Part shown: piece by piece, positions 28,261 through 63,374 of the stretch
Layout: each line of letters begins with the position of its first letter
Numbering within the stretch: the first letter of the stretch is position 1
Source: an uncultured Gemmatimonadaceae bacterium
GTDB lineage: Bacteria; Gemmatimonadota; Gemmatimonadetes; Gemmatimonadales; GWC2-71-9
DNA length: 64,000 nt
Assembly: GCA_964642475.1 (NCBI GenBank)
Contig: CAZXRC010000004.1
Location: 4,604-68,603, forward strand
Direction: 5' to 3'
The notes under the pieces: model-generated
The model's database searches: none
Told to the model about the DNA's origin: nothing
The model's input: only the letters and a program-made list of their open reading frames with translations
Position numbers and translations under genes: made by a program

Positions 28261-28397
28261 TTGACTGTTGGCAGTTGGCCGTAAGCCGCAAGCCGTAAGC
28301 CGTAAGCTGTAAGCTGTAAGCTGTAAGCTGTAGGGTATGTGGCTGTACCGCCTGTGGCTTATTGCCTATGGCGCACTGCCAAACAACCCAGGGCCCT
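28261..28397. repeat. 7-nt periodic tract; core of eight tandem heptamers GCYGYAA
   Basis: Core at 28278-28333: GCCGTAA GCCGCAA GCCGTAA GCCGTAA GCTGTAA GCTGTAA GCTGTAA GCTGTAG. Flanked by degenerate 7-nt units (TTGACTG TTGGCAG TTGGCCG ... TGGCTTA TTGCCTA TGGCGCA CTGCCAA). Lies between the smc stop and the DAHP synthase start. Confidence 0.85.
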
Positions 28398-46132: not shown

Positions 46133-46233
46133 GTCACCTTCCTTTGGTCTTGGCGCCCCGACCCTGGTGAGGGGTACGGGGAGGAGGAATGTTGGGGCGG
46201 GAAACGTAGCCGGGAGAAGGGGTTAGGGCAAGG

Positions 46234-46270
46234 GTCGGACAGTCGGAGGGCCGGACGGTCGGACGGGGGA
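46234..46270. repeat. octamer tandem repeat (GTCGGACR-like x4) upstream of rpsF
   Basis: GTCGGACA GTCGGAGG GCCGGACG GTCGGACG GGGGA. Confidence 0.7.
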
Positions 46271-46368
46271 CGGTGGGTACTCAAGGGCAGGGGCGACTTG
46301 CGTGCGCCCGCAGGTAGGGCATGTTGGGTCAGTGGATCCAGAGCCGCCTCCTCTCCAGGAGTCCCCCC

Positions 46369-50763: not shown

Positions 50764-53115
50764 CTATTTCTCCAGAATGTTGAGGGCCCGCCGTCGGGTC
50801 ACTTCCCGCTCCGTCCCGGTTTCCCTCACCGTCACCTCCAGCAGGTAGGCCCCCGGTTTCAAGTTGGCGAGCCCGACGCCGCGGGTGACCTGCTGGTAAG
50901 GGCCGGTAGCGGCCAGGGTAAACGAGGATTGCACCGCCGGCTTGTCCCTGCGATCCGCCTCGGCCCTTCGGACCGACATGGTCACCTGGTAGGAGGCGCC
51001 GTCGCTGAGCCCGCCGAGCTCATAGAACAGATCGGCATCCGAGCCCCTGGGGTAGGCGTTGAGGGGATTGAGCGGGACCTTGGTGCCGGCGTAGCTCCAG
51101 CTCACTCCGCTCTCGGTCCGGCCCAGGATCAGGTCGGAGATGACCAGGGCTTTGGGTGATGCCGGAATCGCCACGCTGTCACGCCCGGCGCCGGTGGCGG
51201 CATCGACACCCGGGGCCGTAACCAGGCTTCTGATCTGGTAGGTGCCGGGCGGCACCGCCATCTCCAGGAGTCCGGTGAGGTGCTGTTCGCCGGTGAGTGG
51301 CTCCCGGGTCAGGAACGTGCGGGTGGTGTCGAGCTGCCGGATGATGCCGTGCTCGCGGTCCATCGCGATGAGCCGGATGGAAATCGGGTACAACACCCCG
51401 GGCCCGCCGTCGGTCCGCTGCTTGGGCACGAGATTGCGGCCCGGGACGGCAAAGACCGCCAGGATCCGGTGGGTCTCGCCCTCGTCGAACCCGACCCCGT
51501 ACACCTGGACCACCGCATCGAGCGGCTTCTTGAATACCTGGGGGAACCCGTCGCTCGTGACGCCGGCGGCGATGGCCTTCTGGTTCCGATTCACTTCCCG
51601 CTGCAGGACCGCGGCGCTGAGTCGCCCGCCACCGGTGGCGTCCTTGTCCATCCCCAACGCGCCGACCATCTGCTCCGGCGGCCGGAGGATCCGCCCCTTG
51701 CGCAAGTTGAGTTCGCTGGCCTGCGCCCGGTAATTCTGGATCCTGGCCGCGAGCCCGGCGTAGCGGCTGTCGAGCGAAGCACGTGAGTCCAGCAGCTCGG
51801 GCGTGAGGGGAAGCGCCGCTACCAGCGTGGTCGCCGCAGTGGTCCCCAGGGTCCGGCTACCGAGGAAATGGAAGATCCTCCGACCTTCGGGGAGGTCGTA
51901 GGCCCAGGACTCATTGGGTGGTCCGGTGGGACTGCTGACCTTCTGCACCGGCTCGCCGTGCCGGAGGTAGATGACGCCCCGGTCGTCGATTTCCCATTGG
52001 GTCCGGACATAGGACTTTAGGCGGGGGGGACCCAGCGCCACTTCCACGAGCACGTCGTCGGTGTAGGGCTGTTCGAAGAGGTCGTTGAAATCGGAGTCGT
52101 TCAGGCCTTCGCTGTGGATGGGCGCGTCGTCCGGCCGGTGAATCAGGAAGTTCTGGTGGACGAAGACCCAGCGGCGCAGGTGTTCTCGGAGCCGGTCGTT
52201 TTCGGCCCGCAGGGTCAGGGCATCGCGTTCGCGCCAGAAGCGGGTCACCCAGGCGGCCACCTTCTCGGATGGCAGGCTGTCGAACTGGGCCATTTCCCAC
52301 TCGGCGGCGACCCAGGCCAGGTCGGCCCGATACCCGGCGCGTCCATCCTCTCCCATGCTCGCGAGGCCGTCGAAGTAGGCGGCAATTCCCTCGTCGAGGC
52401 GCCCCAGCGCCGTCAGCGTGCGGGCCTGCTCCACCCGCGCCATGCCGCTGTCGCCACCGCCGCGGAGGTAGGCGCCCAAGTCGGTGACCGCCCCTTCGTA
52501 GTTCCGGGCCCCGAAATCCAGCCGGTAGATGGCGAGCCACACCTCGGCAGGCATGCCGGGAGACCTGGCGGCCTTCTGGAGCGGAGGCAGGAAATCGGGG
52601 GAGAGAAGCCGATGTCCCATCGCGATGACCAGCCCCGCCAATGCCTCGGCGCCAGGCACGAAGCTCGGATCGGTCTCGATGGCGCGCCCGAAGGCGTCCA
52701 TCGCGCCACGGCGATAGGAAATGCCCTGGCCCAGATAGCGGGTTTCCTTCACGACCACCGCCCGGCGCGACTCGGTGACCCGCAGAAGGCCCAGGGCGTA
52801 CCAGGGGTAGGGCCAGTCGTCTTCTTTGTAGACCGCTTCCTCGAGCGTCCGGGTGGCTTCGTCGAAGTCGCCGCGGTTGCCGGTCAGCTCGGCGCGGCGG
52901 AGATCGATGAGCCCGGCCCGGACAAGCTCCACGGCGCCGCTAGCCTTGCCGCTGTCGAGCCGGCTCAGATCCTCCGCGGTGCGGGCGCGGGAAAGCGTAT
53001 CCCGAAAGGCCTCCAGCGCGGCACGATCGGCGGCCCCCTGGGCGGAGAGGGGTCGAATCGCGGCAACCAGGAGGGCACACAGGAGCGTCGAACCAGCCGG
53101 AACGGCAAGTCGCAC
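50764..53115 (-). CDS. TPR-like + GWxTD domain protein, paralog 2
   Basis: Probable GTG 53115 (AGGAG 7 nt upstream) gives the signal VRLAVPAGSTLLCALLVAAIRPLSAQ. Core TQWEIDDRGVIYLRHGEP...PNESWAYD. The track ORF extends to 53190. Confidence 0.75.
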   Translation of the reverse strand: MRLAVPAGSTLLCALLVAAIRPLSAQGAADRAALEAFRDTLSRARTAEDLSRLDSGKASGAVELVRAGLIDLRRAELTGNRGDFDEATRTLEEAVYKEDDWPYPWYALGLLRVTESRRAVVVKETRYLGQGISYRRGAMDAFGRAIETDPSFVPGAEALAGLVIAMGHRLLSPDFLPPLQKAARSPGMPAEVWLAIYRLDFGARNYEGAVTDLGAYLRGGGDSGMARVEQARTLTALGRLDEGIAAYFDGLASMGEDGRAGYRADLAWVAAEWEMAQFDSLPSEKVAAWVTRFWRERDALTLRAENDRLREHLRRWVFVHQNFLIHRPDDAPIHSEGLNDSDFNDLFEQPYTDDVLVEVALGPPRLKSYVRTQWEIDDRGVIYLRHGEPVQKVSSPTGPPNESWAYDLPEGRRIFHFLGSRTLGTTAATTLVAALPLTPELLDSRASLDSRYAGLAARIQNYRAQASELNLRKGRILRPPEQMVGALGMDKDATGGGRLSAAVLQREVNRNQKAIAAGVTSDGFPQVFKKPLDAVVQVYGVGFDEGETHRILAVFAVPGRNLVPKQRTDGGPGVLYPISIRLIAMDREHGIIRQLDTTRTFLTREPLTGEQHLTGLLEMAVPPGTYQIRSLVTAPGVDAATGAGRDSVAIPASPKALVISDLILGRTESGVSWSYAGTKVPLNPLNAYPRGSDADLFYELGGLSDGASYQVTMSVRRAEADRRDKPAVQSSFTLAATGPYQQVTRGVGLANLKPGAYLLEVTVRETGTEREVTRRRALNILEK

Positions 53116-53311
53116 CTTCGGACTCCTCAGCTGTTGGTCTGGCGTAGTGGTACGGCCGCAAGGCAGGAACGGATCTAACGACCCGACCATAAAGACGACC
53201 AGGGCGGGGAATGCTGCACCTGCAGGATCGTTCGGGCAGGCCGCCTCAAGAGGATGGGGAGTCTCATATCAGGGAAGGGTGGTCCTCTCCGCTCACTCCC
53301 CAACTCTCATC

Positions 53312-55093
53312 CTACCAGTCCCGATTGGCGCTGCCACCCTTCTGCTGGCGGCGACCCTCATGGGTGTTGAGCTGCTGGCGCTCGACCTCCTCAAGCATGG
53401 CGCGTGCCTGCTGCTCGTCCAGCTCCTCGACCGATTCACCCTCATCTCCGCCCTGTCCCCCGCCCGCCATGGCGCCAACCGCGGTCTGTCGGTTGGCGTC
53501 GTACCCTTCTTCGCGGCTGTTCCCGCGGCCGTAGTCGGCCCGGCCGCCCTGACCCCGGGAGCCGCGTTCGTCGGTGTCGCCGCGGCGGCGGAGCGCCACC
53601 TCGAGATTCCACTTGGCATCGCGATCCGCCGGGTTGAGCCGGAGGGCCTCTTCATAGGCCTCCACGGCCCGGTCGAGATACCGACTGAGGGCGTTGGCAT
53701 CCTGCGCCGCCCGGACGTAGGCGTTGCCCATGTTGTAGAACGCGTCCTCCTTTTGGGCCGGAGCGGCGTTGAGCGCCTCCCGCCAGGTCTTGGCGGCCTC
53801 GGTGTACTGACGGAGCCGGTAGAGTGTGTTGCCGGTGTTGTAGCGCACCTCGGGGCCGCCCTCCTGCCGCAGCACCCTCTGGTACGCTTCGTAGGCCTCG
53901 AGGTACTTGCCGGACTCGTAGAGTTGCTGGCCCTTCACGAGATCGGCGCGGCCGCCGTCGTTGCAGCTCAGGCCGGCGAGGGTGGCAAGCAGCAGAATAG
54001 TCAGGTTCCGAGTTCCGAGTTGCGGGTTCCGCGTCAGTGGTGGCCGGCCGGCGAGGGCGGTCGCTGCCCACGCGCTACGGGTCACTCGGAACTCGGAACT
54101 CGGAACTCGGAACCAGAGCTCAACCAGCAGGCACACCACCGCAACGAGGAGCGGCCACTGGTACCGTTCGTTCGGTTCGGTGTTTTCCTGGCTGTGCAGG
54201 ATCCGGCTCTCCAGGTTGGAGATCGCGCGGGTCATCTCGTCGAGACCGCGGGGGTCGTTCCAGCGGGCGTAGGCCCCGTTGGAGACCCGGGCCAGCTGCT
54301 GGAGATCGGCCTCCGCCAGGCGCGAGATCACCGGCCGCCCGATGTTGTCGAGGTGCCAGGGGCCTTCCGCGGCCCCGGAGTCGTTGGGCACCTGGGCCCC
54401 CTCGAGCGCGCCGATGCCGATCGCGAAGATGGGGATGTGGGCCCGGCGATAGAGGTCGAAGATCGGGTCAAGGGCCCCTTCCGATCGCTCTCCGTCGGTC
54501 AGGAGAATCACGCCCCGTGACCCGATCAGGGTTCGCTCCTTGCGGAGCGCTCGCTCCGACACTCGGAGTGCCGAGGCCAGGTTGGTCGAGGGATCGGCGA
54601 TATCGTCGGGGGTGGCCGCCTCGAGGAAACGCTGCAGCGTTCCCAGGTCGCTGGTCGGCGGCAGCTGCAGGAACGCGGCTCCGGCGAAGATCACCATGCC
54701 GACCCGGTCGCCGGGGTGGGTCCCGGCCAGCTGCCACGCCAGCCGTTTGGCGAGGTCGAGCCGGGCCATCCCCACATCCGCCGCCTTCATCGAGCGCGAC
54801 AGGTCGAGCGCCACGATCAGGTCGCGGCCGGTCTTCGGCAGCTCGGCCGGGTGCCGTCCGACCTGGGGGCGGGCCAGGGCGATCACTGCGGCGGCGAGCC
54901 CGGTCCAGCGAAGCAGTCCCCGGCGGCGATCGGGGGTGAGCGGCGGCAGGATCGAGCTCTTGGCCAGGATGGTCCGGTCGCCGAAGCGCGCCAGCGCATC
55001 GTCGTGATCCCGCCGGGCCTGGCGAATGATCATCCAGAGCGCCGGCAGGACTGCCAGGAGGATCAGTGCGGTCGGAGTGACAAAGAGGCTCAT
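53312..55093 (-). CDS. vWA-domain protein (BatB-like) continuous in-frame with a TPR protein (BatC-like)
   Basis: MIDAS LIVALDLSRSM; TM WPLLVAVVCLLVELW; then a 35-aa linker encoded by the hairpin repeat; then a lipoprotein-like LTILLLATLAGLSC, TPR repeats and a Gly/Arg/Glu-rich tail. No in-frame stop between the two parts. Confidence 0.7.
   Translation of the reverse strand: MSLFVTPTALILLAVLPALWMIIRQARRDHDDALARFGDRTILAKSSILPPLTPDRRRGLLRWTGLAAAVIALARPQVGRHPAELPKTGRDLIVALDLSRSMKAADVGMARLDLAKRLAWQLAGTHPGDRVGMVIFAGAAFLQLPPTSDLGTLQRFLEAATPDDIADPSTNLASALRVSERALRKERTLIGSRGVILLTDGERSEGALDPIFDLYRRAHIPIFAIGIGALEGAQVPNDSGAAEGPWHLDNIGRPVISRLAEADLQQLARVSNGAYARWNDPRGLDEMTRAISNLESRILHSQENTEPNERYQWPLLVAVVCLLVELWFRVPSSEFRVTRSAWAATALAGRPPLTRNPQLGTRNLTILLLATLAGLSCNDGGRADLVKGQQLYESGKYLEAYEAYQRVLRQEGGPEVRYNTGNTLYRLRQYTEAAKTWREALNAAPAQKEDAFYNMGNAYVRAAQDANALSRYLDRAVEAYEEALRLNPADRDAKWNLEVALRRRGDTDERGSRGQGGRADYGRGNSREEGYDANRQTAVGAMAGGGQGGDEGESVEELDEQQARAMLEEVERQQLNTHEGRRQQKGGSANRDW
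54004..54114. repeat. inverted arrays of heptamers (GTTCCGA)n ... (TCGGAAC)n inside the BatB/BatC ORF
   Basis: Left arm 54005-54032: GTTCCGA GTTCCGA GTTGCGG GTTCCGC. A 53-nt spacer follows. Right arm 54086-54113: four perfect TCGGAAC units. Confidence 0.85.
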
Positions 55094-56082
55094 GGCAGCA
55101 TCCTGAGCCAGGTGGCCCGGAGGAGCATCTGGAGCAGGAGCAAGGCGAGACCGAGCCCCACCAGGCCGGGGAAGAGCTCATGGTACTGCCGAGTCTCGCT
55201 CACCGTCACTTCGATCCGCTCGAGTGGATCGATCTCCTTGAGGATCCGGTCGAGGCCCTCGGGGTCGTTCGCCTTGTAGAACTGCCCGCCGCTGCGGGCG
55301 GCGATGTCCTTGAGCGCCGCCTCGTCCCGGCCCGAGAGCCGGCTCGCCAGGTTGCGTACGCTCCACACCCCATTGAGCGCCACCTGGCTGGTATCGCCGT
55401 TCGAGAGCCCGATGGCGTGGATTCGGATGCCGAGCGACTTGGCCGCCTCCGCCGCCTCGGTGGGGGTGGGACGCCCGGTGTTGTTGGCCCCATCGGTGAT
55501 CAGCACGATGGTGCAGGCGTTCCGCGGAAGATTCTTGAGCTGGTTGAGGCTGAGCGCGAGGGCGGTGCCGATGGCCGTGCCGTCGGGCAGTGTGCCGATA
55601 TCGACCGTCTCCACCATCCGGTCGAGCACATCCAGATCGGTGGTGAGCGGCGCCTGCAGGAACGCCCGGCCGGCGAAGATCACCATGCCGATGAGGTCGC
55701 CGTTGCGCCGCTTGATGAACTCCCGGAGGACTTTGCGCGCGACCTCGAGCCGGTTGCCCGGCTGGAAGTCGGTGGCCTTCATGCTGCTCGAGATGTCGAG
55801 CACGATCATGATATTGCGCGACCGGACCCGGGTGGGCTCCGCCTCCCCCGCCACCTGGGGCCGGGCCAGCGCGATTACGAGGAGAACCAGCGCCACCAGT
55901 CCCAGGAGCGCCGGCAGCCGGTGCCAGGGGCTCCGCGGGCCCCGCCTGAGCCCCTGGAGGAACTGCATCCCGCTGAAGGCCACGTGGTGCTCCGGCGGCC
56001 GCCGGCGGCGCTGCCATTCCCGCCAGGCCAGCCAGAGCGGCCCCAGCAGGAGCAGAAGAAAGGCCGGATCAGCGAACCGCAC
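55090..56082 (-). CDS. vWA-domain membrane protein (BatA-like)
   Basis: N-terminal TMs, MIDAS IMIVLDISSSM, C-terminal TM. ATGA overlap with the downstream gene. Confidence 0.85.
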   Translation of the reverse strand: MRFADPAFLLLLLGPLWLAWREWQRRRRPPEHHVAFSGMQFLQGLRRGPRSPWHRLPALLGLVALVLLVIALARPQVAGEAEPTRVRSRNIMIVLDISSSMKATDFQPGNRLEVARKVLREFIKRRNGDLIGMVIFAGRAFLQAPLTTDLDVLDRMVETVDIGTLPDGTAIGTALALSLNQLKNLPRNACTIVLITDGANNTGRPTPTEAAEAAKSLGIRIHAIGLSNGDTSQVALNGVWSVRNLASRLSGRDEAALKDIAARSGGQFYKANDPEGLDRILKEIDPLERIEVTVSETRQYHELFPGLVGLGLALLLLQMLLRATWLRMLP

Positions 56083-56985: not shown

Positions 56986-57864
56986 CTAGAGCCGGCGCCG
57001 TTCCCGGCGGCTGAAGAACGCCGCCAGCCGTTCGCCGTAGGGGTGATCGGTATCGAGCCGCAGCAGGTCCACCCCGGCGCGGTTGCAGTGCAGGGCAAAG
57101 GCCTCGTCGAACGCGGCCCGGGCCGCGCGGTAGCCGTCGCGAAGGCCCGGCTCGTCGGCGTCGACCACTTCCCAGTGGCCGGTCTCCGGGTCGAACAGCG
57201 TCACCAGCCCCACGCCGGGGAGTTCCCGCTCGCGCGGGTCGGTGAGCTGCATGGCCATGACATCGTGGCGGTGCGCCAGGCGATCCAGGGCCGGCCACTG
57301 GGAACGGTCGAGGAAGTCGGAGAGGAGCACCACGGCGGCGCGCTGGCGCAGGACCGGCTCAAGGTAGTCGAGGGTGCCGTTGAGATCGGTGCCACGCCCG
57401 GTGGGCTCGAAGGCCAGAACCTGGCTCACCACGGTGAGGGCCTGACGCCGCCCGCTCTTGGGCGGGGCGAACCATTCGATCCGGTCGCTGTAGAACACCG
57501 CCCCCACCCGGTCGCGGTGGCGGGTCGCGGCGAGCGCGAGGACCGCCGCCACTTCGGCCGCCAGCTCCCGCTTGGTGCGGGTGGTGCTCCCGAACCCGCT
57601 CGAGGCGCTCAGGTCCACCAGCAGGAGCAGGGTGAGCTGGCGCTCCTCGTGGAAGCGCTTCACGTAGGGGGTGCCGAGCCGGGCGGTGACGTTCCAGTCG
57701 ATGGTGCGGACATCGTCACCGGGCAGGTATTCCCGCACCTCGGCGAACTCGACCCCACGGCCCCGGAAGGTGCTGGTGTAGTCGCCCGCCACCAGATCGC
57801 GCACCAGCTCCCGGGTGGTAAGCTCGATGCGCTTGACCTCGCGGAGCAGTTCGGCCGGTGTCAC
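56986..57864 (-). CDS. DUF58 domain-containing protein
   Basis: GTG 57864 overlaps the MoxR stop. REYLPGDDVRTIDWNVTARLGTPYVKRF and LLVDLSASS are typical of DUF58. Confidence 0.85.
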   Translation of the reverse strand: MTPAELLREVKRIELTTRELVRDLVAGDYTSTFRGRGVEFAEVREYLPGDDVRTIDWNVTARLGTPYVKRFHEERQLTLLLLVDLSASSGFGSTTRTKRELAAEVAAVLALAATRHRDRVGAVFYSDRIEWFAPPKSGRRQALTVVSQVLAFEPTGRGTDLNGTLDYLEPVLRQRAAVVLLSDFLDRSQWPALDRLAHRHDVMAMQLTDPRERELPGVGLVTLFDPETGHWEVVDADEPGLRDGYRAARAAFDEAFALHCNRAGVDLLRLDTDHPYGERLAAFFSRRERRRL

Positions 57865-58886
57865 GGAATCGGGACGGCGGCCAGGACCCGGTCCAGCATC
57901 TGGTCCGAGGTCACGCCATCGGCCTCGGCCTGGTAGGTGGGGATGAGGCGGTGCCGCAGGGTGTCGGGGACCATGACCTTGACGTCTTCCGGCAGGACGT
58001 AGGCCCGTCCGGCGAGAAACGCGTGGGCCTTGGCGGCCTTCACCAGGTAGATGCCGGCCCGGGGCGAGGCGCCGAACTGGATCAGCGTCTCCAGCTCGTT
58101 CAGCTTCCATTTGCCCGGTTCCCGCGTCGCCGCCACGACGTCGAGCACGTACTCCTTGATCCGGTCGTCGACGTAGAGCCCGCGGACGATGTCCCGGGCC
58201 CGGAGCACCCGGTCGGGATGCAGCACCACCCGGGCGCTGGGTTCCTCGGTGTCGGTCATCCGGTCGATGATCTCGCGCTCCTCCATCCGGCTGGGATAGC
58301 TCACCAGCAGCTTGAAGAGGAACCGGTCGACCTGGGCCTCGGGCAGCGGATAGGTCCCCTCGTGCTCCAGCGGGTTCTGGGTCGCGAGCACCAGGAAGAG
58401 GCTCGGCAGCCGGTGGGTCTCGCCGCCGATGGTGACCTGCTTCTCCTGCATCGACTCAAGCAGCGCGCTCTGCACCTTGGCCGGGGCCCGGTTCACCTCA
58501 TCCGCCAGCAGGATGTTGGTGAAGATCGGCCCCTTCTGCACCGTGAAGTCGCCGGAACGCTGGTTGTAGATCAACGTGCCGATCAGGTCGGCGGGCAGCA
58601 GGTCGGGGGTGAACTGGACCCGGCGGCAGTCGCAGTCCATCGTGGCGGAGAGGGTCCGGACCGCCAGGGTCTTGGCCAGACCGGGCAGCCCCTCCAGGAG
58701 GATGTGCCCGTCGGCCAGCAGGCCGATGAGCAGCCGCTCCAGCAGGACCTGCTGCCCCACGATCACTTTGCCGATCTCGGCGAGGACGTCGCGGAACACG
58801 GCGCTTTCCCGGGCGATTTCTGGAGCGCGGGCCAGCGCCGAGTCAGGACCGAATCTGGAGAGGGCGCCGCTCGTGGCTGTGGTCAT
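57861..58886 (-). CDS. MoxR family AAA+ ATPase
   Basis: Trimmed to ATG 58886. Walker A LEGLPGLAKT, Walker B ILLADEVNRA, VLATQNPLEHEGTYPLPEAQVDRF. Confidence 0.9.
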   Translation of the reverse strand: MTTATSGALSRFGPDSALARAPEIARESAVFRDVLAEIGKVIVGQQVLLERLLIGLLADGHILLEGLPGLAKTLAVRTLSATMDCDCRRVQFTPDLLPADLIGTLIYNQRSGDFTVQKGPIFTNILLADEVNRAPAKVQSALLESMQEKQVTIGGETHRLPSLFLVLATQNPLEHEGTYPLPEAQVDRFLFKLLVSYPSRMEEREIIDRMTDTEEPSARVVLHPDRVLRARDIVRGLYVDDRIKEYVLDVVAATREPGKWKLNELETLIQFGASPRAGIYLVKAAKAHAFLAGRAYVLPEDVKVMVPDTLRHRLIPTYQAEADGVTSDQMLDRVLAAVPIP

Positions 58887-58992
58887 GCGGTCGGAGTCCT
58901 TGGGGGCAGGGAGCATAAGTATACACCGCCCCGTCCACCCCGAAACGAGGCCACTCTTGTACACACGCCGACCCCGGCTACACTGTTGGGGC

Positions 58993-59736
58993 ATGACCCC
59001 CGCCGGCGACAGCGCCCCCCATGGCTTTCCCACTACCCGGGTGTCGGTGGTGGCGGCGGCGGCGGGCGCCGACCCCGACGCCCGTGGCCGCGCGCTGGCC
59101 ACGCTGGTCGACGTCTACTGGCGGCCCTGCTACATCCATCTCCGTCTCAAGTGGGGCCTGGTGCGGGAGGAGGCGGAGGACCTGACCCAGGAGTTCTTTG
59201 TCCGGAGCCTCGACGGCGGTTTCTTCGAGCGGTTCGATCCGGCCCGGGCCCGCTTTCGCACCTTTCTCCGGAGTGCGCTCGACCACCTGGCGGCCAACGC
59301 CCGTCGGGCCGAGCAGCGGCTCAAGCGCGGCGCCGGCGTCGTCCACCTCTCGCTCGATTTCGCGGCGGCGGAACAGGATCTCGCCTTCGCCGCGGCGGCG
59401 GAGGATCCCGACGAGCGCTTCCACCGCGAGTGGGTTCGGAGCCTGTTCGTGGTGGCGGTCGAAGCGCTGGAAGCGCACGCGGCCGCACTGGGCCACAGCA
59501 CCCGATTCCGGGTCTTCTCACGGGCCGATCTCGAGCCGGTCGAGGGCGGCCCGCGGCCGTCCTACCGTGACCTCGCGGAGGAGTTCGATCTGCCGCTGAC
59601 CCAGGTGACCAATCACCTGGCCTGGGCCCGGCGGGAGTTCCGCCGCATCGTGCTGGAGCGGCTCCGCGCTCTGACCGGCAGTGAGGCCGAGTACCGCGCC
59701 GAGGCCCGCGAACTCTTCGGGATGGACCCCCCATGA
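58993..59736 (+). CDS. ECF-type sigma-70 family factor
   Basis: Trimmed to ATG 58993. Region-2-like YWRPCYIHLRLKWGLVREEAEDLTQEFF and region-4-like DLAEEFDLPLTQVTNHLAWARREFRRIV. ATGA overlap with the kinase start. Confidence 0.65.
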   Translation: MTPAGDSAPHGFPTTRVSVVAAAAGADPDARGRALATLVDVYWRPCYIHLRLKWGLVREEAEDLTQEFFVRSLDGGFFERFDPARARFRTFLRSALDHLAANARRAEQRLKRGAGVVHLSLDFAAAEQDLAFAAAAEDPDERFHREWVRSLFVVAVEALEAHAAALGHSTRFRVFSRADLEPVEGGPRPSYRDLAEEFDLPLTQVTNHLAWARREFRRIVLERLRALTGSEAEYRAEARELFGMDPP

Positions 59737-62687: not shown

Positions 62688-62694
62688 GGGGCCT

Positions 62695-62811
62695 TTGGCC
62701 GTTGGCCGTTGGCCATTGGCCGCTGTAGCTGGTTGGGCGCGTGCGAGCGCGTTATCTGGGAAACCATGTATGACATCGTACTACCAACGGCCAACGGCCA
62801 ATGGCTAACGG
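62695..62811. repeat. inverted arrays of heptamers (TTGGCCG)4 ... (CCAACGG)4 between pth and ychF
   Basis: Left arm 62695-62722: TTGGCCG TTGGCCG TTGGCCA TTGGCCG. A 61-nt spacer follows. Right arm 62784-62811: CCAACGG CCAACGG CCAATGG CTAACGG. The pth stop codon lies inside the right arm. Confidence 0.85.
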
Positions 62812-63374
62812 CTATTGAACCGGTTCATTGCCACTTCGATCCCGTCGCTGAGCCAGCATTCGATGGCCTGGCACATCGGGTCGAGCAGGTCCTCCACCAC
62901 CGCCCGCTCCTCGGGGGGGAACGGTTCCAGCACGAAGTCGGCGGTGTCGCGGGTGCCCGCCGGCAGCGGGCCGATCCCGATCCGGAGCCGGGCGTAATCC
63001 TGCCGCCGGAGCGCTCCCTCGATGCTCTTGAGACCGTTGTGCCCCCCGGCCGACCCCGCGCCCCGGAGGCGGAACTTGCCGAGCGGCAAGGCGAAGTCGT
63101 CGGTGACGACGAGCAGGTCCTGCGCCGGGTCGAACCCCGGAAGCGAACGGAGCGAGGCCAGCGCGGCCCCGCTCCGGTTCATGTAGGTCTGCGGCTTGAT
63201 CAGGGTCACGGGGCGACCCAGGGCGCTGCCCTGCGCCTCGCGGGCGGCCGGCACCCGCCGAAAGGGCGGGAGCTTCCAGCGCGCGGCCAGGCGGTCGACC
63301 AAGAGAAACCCGGCATTGTGCCGGGTATTCTCGTACTCCGAGCCTGGGTTGCCGAGACCGACGATGGCTCGCAG
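62805..63374 (-). CDS. pth: peptidyl-tRNA hydrolase (apparent CTG start)
   Basis: The conserved N-terminus AIVGLGNPGSEYENTRHNAGF lies upstream of the first ATG/GTG. The only in-frame candidates after the upstream TAA are CTG 63374 (AAGGAG 6 nt upstream) and ATC. Confidence 0.85.
   Translation of the reverse strand: MRAIVGLGNPGSEYENTRHNAGFLLVDRLAARWKLPPFRRVPAAREAQGSALGRPVTLIKPQTYMNRSGAALASLRSLPGFDPAQDLLVVTDDFALPLGKFRLRGAGSAGGHNGLKSIEGALRRQDYARLRIGIGPLPAGTRDTADFVLEPFPPEERAVVEDLLDPMCQAIECWLSDGIEVAMNRFNSR

Follow-up and report, generated by a model that had tools for sequence, protein, structure and literature searches.

The window analysed here is a stretch of 64,000 nucleotides (contig C4, positions 4604-68603) from the genome of an uncultured Gemmatimonadaceae bacterium from soil; this genome is referred to as G000. 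This source genome is a draft metagenome-assembled genome of 4.17 Mb with a G+C content of 69%, 79 contigs and a completeness of 98.7%, and the relatives with which it was compared are metagenome-assembled genomes of the Gemmatimonadales. The minus strand of the window at positions 53312-55093 encodes a membrane protein of 593 residues, in which a BatB-like VWA part is fused to a BatC-like TPR part. The gene was defined by its open reading frame (ORF) and translation, by Pfam and by full-length, stop-free orthologues across the genus, and it is the only long ORF with coding character over the site considered below. Pfam placed the VWA_2/VWA matches at residues 91-230 and the TPR_2/TPR_16/TPR_11 matches at residues 387-461. 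Between the two parts, the gene contains a hairpin built from tandem heptamers, which is translated in frame. This hairpin is probably a tolerated passenger, homogenised at the DNA level, in a hypervariable loop of an anciently fused gene.

On the plus strand, the element begins with two perfect GTTCCGA units (54005-54018) and continues with the degenerate units GTTGCGG and GTTCCGC up to position 54032, as the repeat finders agreed; a spacer of 53 nt (54033-54085) and four perfect TCGGAAC units (54086-54113) follow. Because the VWA-TPR gene lies on the minus strand, the perfect four-unit arm leads in the mRNA. The 5' arm in the mRNA sense (54086-54113, minus strand) reads (GTTCCGA)4 and encodes roughly F328-V337, the spacer (minus strand) forms the inner part of the hairpin and encodes the middle of the loop, and the 3' arm (54005-54032, minus strand) reads GCGGAAC, CCGCAAC and (TCGGAAC)2 and encodes roughly T354-N363. 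The spacer is unique to this copy, as the spacers of the other paired copies in the genome are unrelated to it. The element opens on the final base of the W327 codon, closes with the N363 codon and encodes the 36 residues 328-363 free of stops. The sense RNA was predicted to fold into a single long stem of -67.2 kcal/mol with a z-score of -5.8 (200 dinucleotide shuffles). The two-unit pattern was matched four times in the window, compared with 0.03 matches expected from shuffles. As follows from the unit directly, GTTCCGA-type heptamer arrays are stop-free in all six frames.

The element lies directly between two hydrophobic helices and constitutes the whole 36-residue loop that joins them. 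The preceding helix, the third transmembrane (TM) helix TM3, comprises codons W313-W327 (54113-54157, minus strand; translation, with an AlphaFold helix at 312-328), and the element starts on its final base. Residues P314 and L315 of this helix were invariant across 40 aligned sequences. The following helix comprises codons L364-C377 (53963-54004, minus strand; translation and alignment, with an AlphaFold helix at 359-376) and ends in a cysteine; C377 was invariant in the 40 orthologue sequences, down to 46% identity, and a lipobox-like LLSC was present in most of them. The AlphaFold2 model, which was calculated on the 40-sequence alignment, contained the two helices at residues 312-328 and 359-376 and an unstructured stretch at residues 333-357 with a predicted local distance difference test (pLDDT) score below 50; this low-confidence stretch is the segment encoded by the hairpin element. 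The loop is probably cytoplasmic, because its sequence is positively charged. The segment 364-377 (window 53963-54004) also resembles an internal lipoprotein signal peptide. If the Cys377 segment is processed, this would free the TPR half as a lipoprotein, with the repeat-encoded loop either in the part that is discarded or in the part that stays with the VWA half.

The original prediction had placed a heptamer hairpin inside the 593-residue ORF, exactly between a TM helix and a lipoprotein-signal-like segment. The hairpin is real and is as described apart from the strand, and its borders with the W313-W327 and L364-C377 segments are exact. The prediction was also right that the element is stop-free in the frame of the gene, that the other two frames contain stops, which we located within the spacer, and that an in-frame GTG, the V337 codon, is present in this hairpin copy. 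Its overall reading therefore stands as far as in-frame translation is concerned, with the element forming the entire linker of the BatB-like and BatC-like halves, but the three origins it offered for this arrangement do not, as described below.

To place the element in time, the orthologues of the gene were examined. A six-frame search revealed full-length, stop-free matches in about 20 species of the genus, with identities of 59-86%, and four further genus genomes likewise contained a full-length single ORF, which gives a total of about 24 genus species. A full-length match with 29-31% identity over residues 7-586 was present in another family of the order, and a large protein database contained more than 100 single VWA+TPR proteins of 570-630 residues, mostly from the Gemmatimonadota. 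In every aligned orthologue, a hydrophobic helix is followed by a loop of varying length and sequence, by a second hydrophobic stretch with Cys at its end and then by the TPR part. In 19 further species of the genus, we found the same single ORF and the same TM-loop-TM-Cys layout without the element. Judged from these comparisons, the VWA-TPR fusion predates the element and the fused state is independent of the repeat, because most fused orthologues lack the element. In the orthologue of genome G005 (L078, G005:C149:17600-19900), the frame is broken at least twice, in the loop and close to the C-terminus, and the site has no repeat. We considered this locus as a natural split or frameshifted state and rejected it as probable assembly indel noise, given the number of frameshifts and the missing repeat.

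Among the genus genomes compared, a GTTCC-type array was present in the loop only in G000, G021, G023, G022 and G048. In a protein tree calculated with the loop excluded, these five bearers form one clade with a support of 100/99, and the sister genome G009 is without the element. The folding of the loop region followed the same division, with z-scores of -3.6 to -6.6 in the four bearers tested, compared with -0.5 to +1.5 in 16 other orthologues. In all bearer species, the arms adjoin both helix-coding segments at identical places, and the spacers between them cannot be aligned.

The unit in the arms differs between the bearers, and it differs in both arms together. The first and second arms are built from GTTCCGA and TCGGAAC in G000, from GTTCCGR and TCGGMAC in G021, and from GTTCCTC and GAGGAAC in G023 and G022. 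In G048, the first arm reads (GTTCCGC)3 GTTCCGA and the second arm is lost; an 8-mer hairpin stands in its place and also fills the former spacer. Two contigs from JGI extend the series: L080 contains (GTTCCGC)4 and (GCGGAAC)4, which fold into a hairpin of -100 kcal/mol, and L079 contains a decayed GTTCCCC first arm and a GGGGAAC second arm. On the outer side of one arm of G023, two GCGGAAC units remain, which look like a relic of an older, partly overwritten unit. The outer GC-type relics favour rewriting in place in G023, and a fresh TC-type insertion is less likely. Metagenomic relatives with 73-85% identity carried matching peptide signatures as well as hairpins of an 8-mer family, all of them in frame, and the frame was intact in at least seven independent hairpin-bearing assemblies. 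The peptide encoded by the arms changes along with the unit between orthologues, and therefore conservation acts on the DNA or RNA and not on the protein.

Other arrays were also observed in this loop. The loops of L014 (G008) and L022 (G015) contain about 11 copies of the 8-mer CGCCGAAC in a direct, non-inverted array, whose translation repeats every eight residues and whose fold is not significant (z about 0). The 8-mer family, with the peptide signatures SGGQAV and TARPPxRLTA, was found in the loops of P0011, P0012 (which is G048), P0013 and P0015-P0017. In the P0011 loop, the heptamer and 8-mer arms appear to be interleaved (arm7, arm8, spacer, arm7', arm8') and not nested, an arrangement for which the insertion of a whole hairpin alone gives no explanation.

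The element is one copy of a genome-wide, mostly intergenic family of hairpins with arbitrary spacers. The two-unit pattern was matched 162 times in G000, compared with no match for the reversed control, and with one mismatch allowed and after clustering, these matches corresponded to 106 loci. Among these loci were 52 forward-then-reverse pairs and not a single reverse-then-forward pair. Between copies, the arms differ in length by two to four units. In the 52 pairs, the spacers measure 17 to about 190 nt and have no common sequence. By crude gene calls, many copies have a stop codon within 0-30 nt of one of their ends (-1 to 30 nt in the tally), and often the copy follows it directly. Only two of the 52 pairs are clear hairpins within an ORF, namely the VWA-TPR copy and a copy in mutL (C12:108560-108686), where an in-frame GTTCCGA-type hairpin is located in the flexible linker that joins the ATPase domain to the dimerisation domain. 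Several further apparent in-ORF copies are upstream extensions through the stop-free arms and were not counted as clear. Among the exact arrays with three or more units that an unbiased count gave for G000, period 7 (93 arrays) and period 8 (45 arrays) predominated, with 11, 1 and 1 arrays for periods 6, 9 and 10, and four unit families of 7 or 8 nt dominated these arrays. The window itself contains two additional arrays: (GCCGTAA) x 7.9 at 28278-28332, whose unit includes a stop codon, and the 8-mer (GGTCGGAC) x 5.4 at 46233-46274, whose family flanks an IVP gene on contig C43.

The GTTCCNN unit types are represented very differently in the five bearer genomes. The two-unit counts for the GA, GC and TC types were 162/10/1 in G000, 150/76/3 in G021, 190/163/1 in G048, 62/85/317 in G023 and 10/9/75 in G022. 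From these counts, the unit in the loop follows each genome's own unit spectrum.

The same units flank genes of the 23S_rRNA_IVP family (PF05635). A profile search identified such a gene in G000 at C57:4544-4858 (E = 3e-30), and it is flanked by (GTTCCGA)4 and by TCGGAAC-type units, four perfect and one variant, the whole spanning C57:4437-4954. G000 contains four IVP genes in total, one of them a pseudogene (C57:4437-4954, C30:36517-36834, C43:14837-15145 and C2:182791-183088), and each is bracketed by inverted arrays of one dominant 7- or 8-mer family. The flanks of these loci are protein-coding and are not rRNA genes. At the locus orthologous to that on C57, as recognised by shared flanks, the arrays consist of GTTCCTC units in G023 and of GTTCCGC units in G048 and G021. 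The loop unit was thus the same as the unit flanking the orthologous IVP gene in three of the four genomes in which the IVP gene was found. The hairpin copy in the Bat gene carries no gene.

A second hairpin in the window (62690-62812) is intergenic and has arms of (TTGGCCG)n and (CCAACGG)n. The site is shared with G023 (L056, GTTAGCT-type units) and G048 (L059, TCAGCC/GGCTGAC-type units), and in both the unit differs in both arms. The outermost units beside the right flank are alike in G000, G023 and G048.

The interpretation given at the outset builds on the anatomy of the element, its family membership, the age of the fusion, the shared site, the covariation of the arms and the disordered loop. 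Under this interpretation, ribosomes would read through the hairpin, and translation would supply the entire 36-residue loop. Two properties probably make the element tolerable: heptamer arrays have no stop in any frame, and the loop would need only to be short and rich in Arg, which the array translations contain. A process at the DNA level, and not selection on the protein, would keep the arms alike and complementary by rewriting both of them with the current unit variant of each genome. Since the intergenic site and the IVP locus behave alike, this homogenisation would be family-wide and not a function specific to this gene, and we infer no regulatory role for the hairpin at the VWA-TPR gene. 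Candidate routes are gene conversion, both between arms and between loci, and a templated activity that is linked to the IVP gene. More tentatively, the hairpins may be gene-less satellites of a kind of element that has not been described before, in which each 7- or 8-nt unit has a master copy encoding an IVP four-helix bundle and a linked activity rewrites all arms, including the coding copies in the Bat and mutL genes. If this possible scheme is true, a DNA-level process overwrites stretches of protein sequence.

Several points weigh against this interpretation. In many lineages, the loop is occupied by this hairpin or by hairpins of other unit families, and such recurrent occupancy could reflect a preferred target or a selected role, beyond mere tolerance. 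A stem of -67 kcal/mol within an ORF is unlikely to be without effect on translation or mRNA stability, so that the word passenger may understate its part. The loop units of G021 (GG, AG and GA) match its IVP flanks (GC) only partly. The full-length proteins were gathered by a full-length search, in which frameshifted variants would be under-sampled, and the tally of intergenic and in-ORF copies is limited by rough gene calls, which were based on GC content by codon position and on stop-to-stop frames.

Two other explanations would give the hairpin a role of its own. As a phase-variable switch, slippage by one unit would alternate the product between the complete VWA-TPR protein and a BatB-only form that ends shortly after the first of the two helices beside the loop. 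The 7-nt unit is not a multiple of three, a simulated gain or loss of one unit in the first arm led to a stop at residue 334 or 341, only simulated changes of three units kept the frame, and arm lengths differ by two to four units between copies. However, all five species and every related metagenomic protein retrieved were in frame, although with the sampling bias mentioned above. The arrays of two to four units are also shorter than is usual for frequent slippage, and the sole frameshifted orthologue, that of G005, has no repeat at the site and more than a single frameshift. We consider such a switch unlikely. The second explanation is a selected RNA element, in which the mRNA hairpin would pause ribosomes between the two membrane helices or serve as a site for a double-strand-specific RNase and thereby adjust the relative amounts of the two halves. 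The stem has a very high stability (-67 to -100 kcal/mol), its pairing survives the unit changes, and it is positioned exactly between the two hydrophobic helices; moreover, the related hairpins of intervening sequences (IVS) in 23S rRNA are known substrates of RNase III. Yet pairing-preserving unit changes also occur at the intergenic window hairpin and at the IVP locus, which indicates a family-wide process, and 19 orthologues do without a loop structure (z about 0 in the 16 tested). An Rfam scan of 53000-55300 matched no family; the best match, to a plant microRNA precursor model, reached 29.5 bits against a threshold of 90 and was dismissed as a chance match to a hairpin shape. A selected RNA element is thus improbable to a similar degree.

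The origins suggested in the original prediction were far less consistent with the data. It had proposed that the element was inserted in the intergenic gap between batB and batC and fused two separate genes, in keeping with the separate BatB and BatC of Bacteroides fragilis, with the lipoprotein-signal-like segment and invariant Cys at the start of the second half, and with the usual position of family copies at gene ends. However, the element is limited to one derived clade, and the fused ORF is present in the 19 element-free genus members, in a further family of the order (29-31% identity), widely in the Gemmatimonadota and in more than 100 metagenomic proteins. The comparison of orthologous loci likewise revealed no separate genes, as all orthologues examined contained a single ORF and most were without the element; fusion by the element is therefore very improbable. 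Equally hard to sustain is the proposal of a separate translation start for the TPR half at the internal GTG, in which the hairpin would be an intercistronic regulator. The in-frame GTG (V337) does lie in the spacer region of this copy, but the orthologous hairpins have GTT, GAA or a different codon at this position, and no stop precedes the GTG. A scan of the VWA-TPR gene for promoters and terminators revealed no promoter-like or terminator-like site, and a product starting at V337 would still need the following helix. The least probable explanation is an assembly or sequencing error in a slippage-prone tract that masks a real stop or frameshift. G000 is a metagenome-assembled draft in 79 contigs, and repeat hairpins are hard to assemble; nevertheless, at this very place an in-frame hairpin, differing in sequence, is present in independent assemblies for the four related species as well as in several contigs from JGI, ENA and Logan. 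The frame is intact across the hairpin in the assemblies of all five species and in the further JGI contigs.

With the reading of a tolerated, homogenised passenger preferred, the locus has consequences for annotation. The VWA-TPR gene should be regarded as a genuine, ancient single gene, and the repeat is no ground for splitting it or for a frameshift flag. Sister species encode one protein loop by hairpins in which the unit has been swapped in both arms, which provides a clean natural experiment; from the swap of both arms, it follows that the protein sequence there would be dictated by repeat dynamics and not by selection on residues. The match between the loop unit and the IVP-flanking unit, which holds in three of four genomes, provides a testable approach to the nature of the long-unit dispersed repeats of high-GC bacteria and also to the role of the widespread IVP four-helix-bundle proteins.

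The neighbouring genes on the same strand provide the operon context of the VWA-TPR gene. Upstream lies a BatA-like gene with a BatA N-terminal domain and a VWA domain (55090-56082, minus strand; PF07584 and PF00092), which is accompanied by a DUF58 gene (56986-58110, minus strand; PF01882, E = 2e-72) and a gene for a MoxR-type AAA+ ATPase (57861-59102, minus strand; AAA_3, AAA_lid_2 and bpMoxR in Pfam). The reading of the locus as a Bat operon is sound, because these neighbours encode BatA-domain VWA, DUF58 and MoxR proteins. In the Bacteroides fragilis aerotolerance (Bat) operon, BatB and BatC are encoded by separate genes. The present locus resembles that operon in its set of a MoxR ATPase, DUF58, a BatA-domain VWA protein, a VWA part and a TPR part with a lipoprotein-signal-like start. 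In contrast to the Bacteroides operon, the VWA and TPR parts form one polypeptide here and throughout this group of Gemmatimonadales.

We compared the hairpin family with repeats described in other bacteria. The closest published analogue of the GTTCCNN hairpins is the set of GGGAATC repeat pairs of Xanthomonas. Rehm et al. (2015; PMC4692102) described dispersed heptamers with the unit GGGAATC in Xanthomonas and GGGGAYT in Nostoc, usually in about four copies at roughly 100-200 sites per genome. The Xanthomonas heptamers form 70-75 convergent pairs per genome that are able to form stem-loops, and 89-93% of them are intergenic, often no more than 50 bp from a stop codon, with 7-11% intragenic (PMC4692102). 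The family in G000 is similar in that tandem 7-nt units occur at dispersed sites (106 loci with 52 stem-loop-capable pairs), which are mostly intergenic and near stop codons, with few in ORFs. The differences are also clear. GTTCCGA/TCGGAAC has no G-tract, and the G-quadruplex rationale is therefore inapplicable; pairs are the rule here and not a subset; both arms change their unit together between species; and the major unit families each flank a 23S_rRNA_IVP gene, a link that was not found in PMC4692102. A literature search for IVP proteins tied to tandem-unit hairpins likewise returned nothing relevant.

The repetitive extragenic palindromic (REP) sequences and their REPIN forms, which are associated with RAYT transposases, share several properties with this family: they are short, dispersed, hairpin-forming, mostly extragenic and lineage-specific, and a gene-carrying copy is flanked by the repeat. 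Unlike in REP/REPIN elements, the arms here are tandem 7-nt arrays and not one palindrome of 20-35 nt, and the flanked gene encodes a four-helix-bundle IVP. No match to a Y1/RAYT transposase (PF01797) was found in the 98.7% complete G000 genome, although control genomes gave matches, and membership in the REP/REPIN class was rejected for want of this transposase. A reading as miniature transposable elements with inverted repeats (MITEs) was rejected as well, since the spacers of the 52 pairs share no sequence. In an informal inspection by eye, no target-site duplications were evident in the 12-nt flanks of the copies.

The IVS of 23S rRNA that carry an S23p/IVP ORF, for which Leptospira provides one example, are the remaining comparison. 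Such sequences have been described in Coxiella, among others (PMC4990558). The family in G000 is like these IVS in that a small PF05635 gene lies within long, stem-forming inverted repeats, the whole being regarded as a selfish element; this likeness holds for the family as a whole and not for the gene-less Bat copy. In contrast to the IVS, which sit in a helix of the 23S rRNA gene and are excised from the rRNA, the copies in G000 lie outside rRNA genes, and their inverted repeats are arrays of tandem units. Furthermore, about 100 gene-less hairpins here share the unit that flanks an IVP gene, and one of them is translated within a protein-coding gene.

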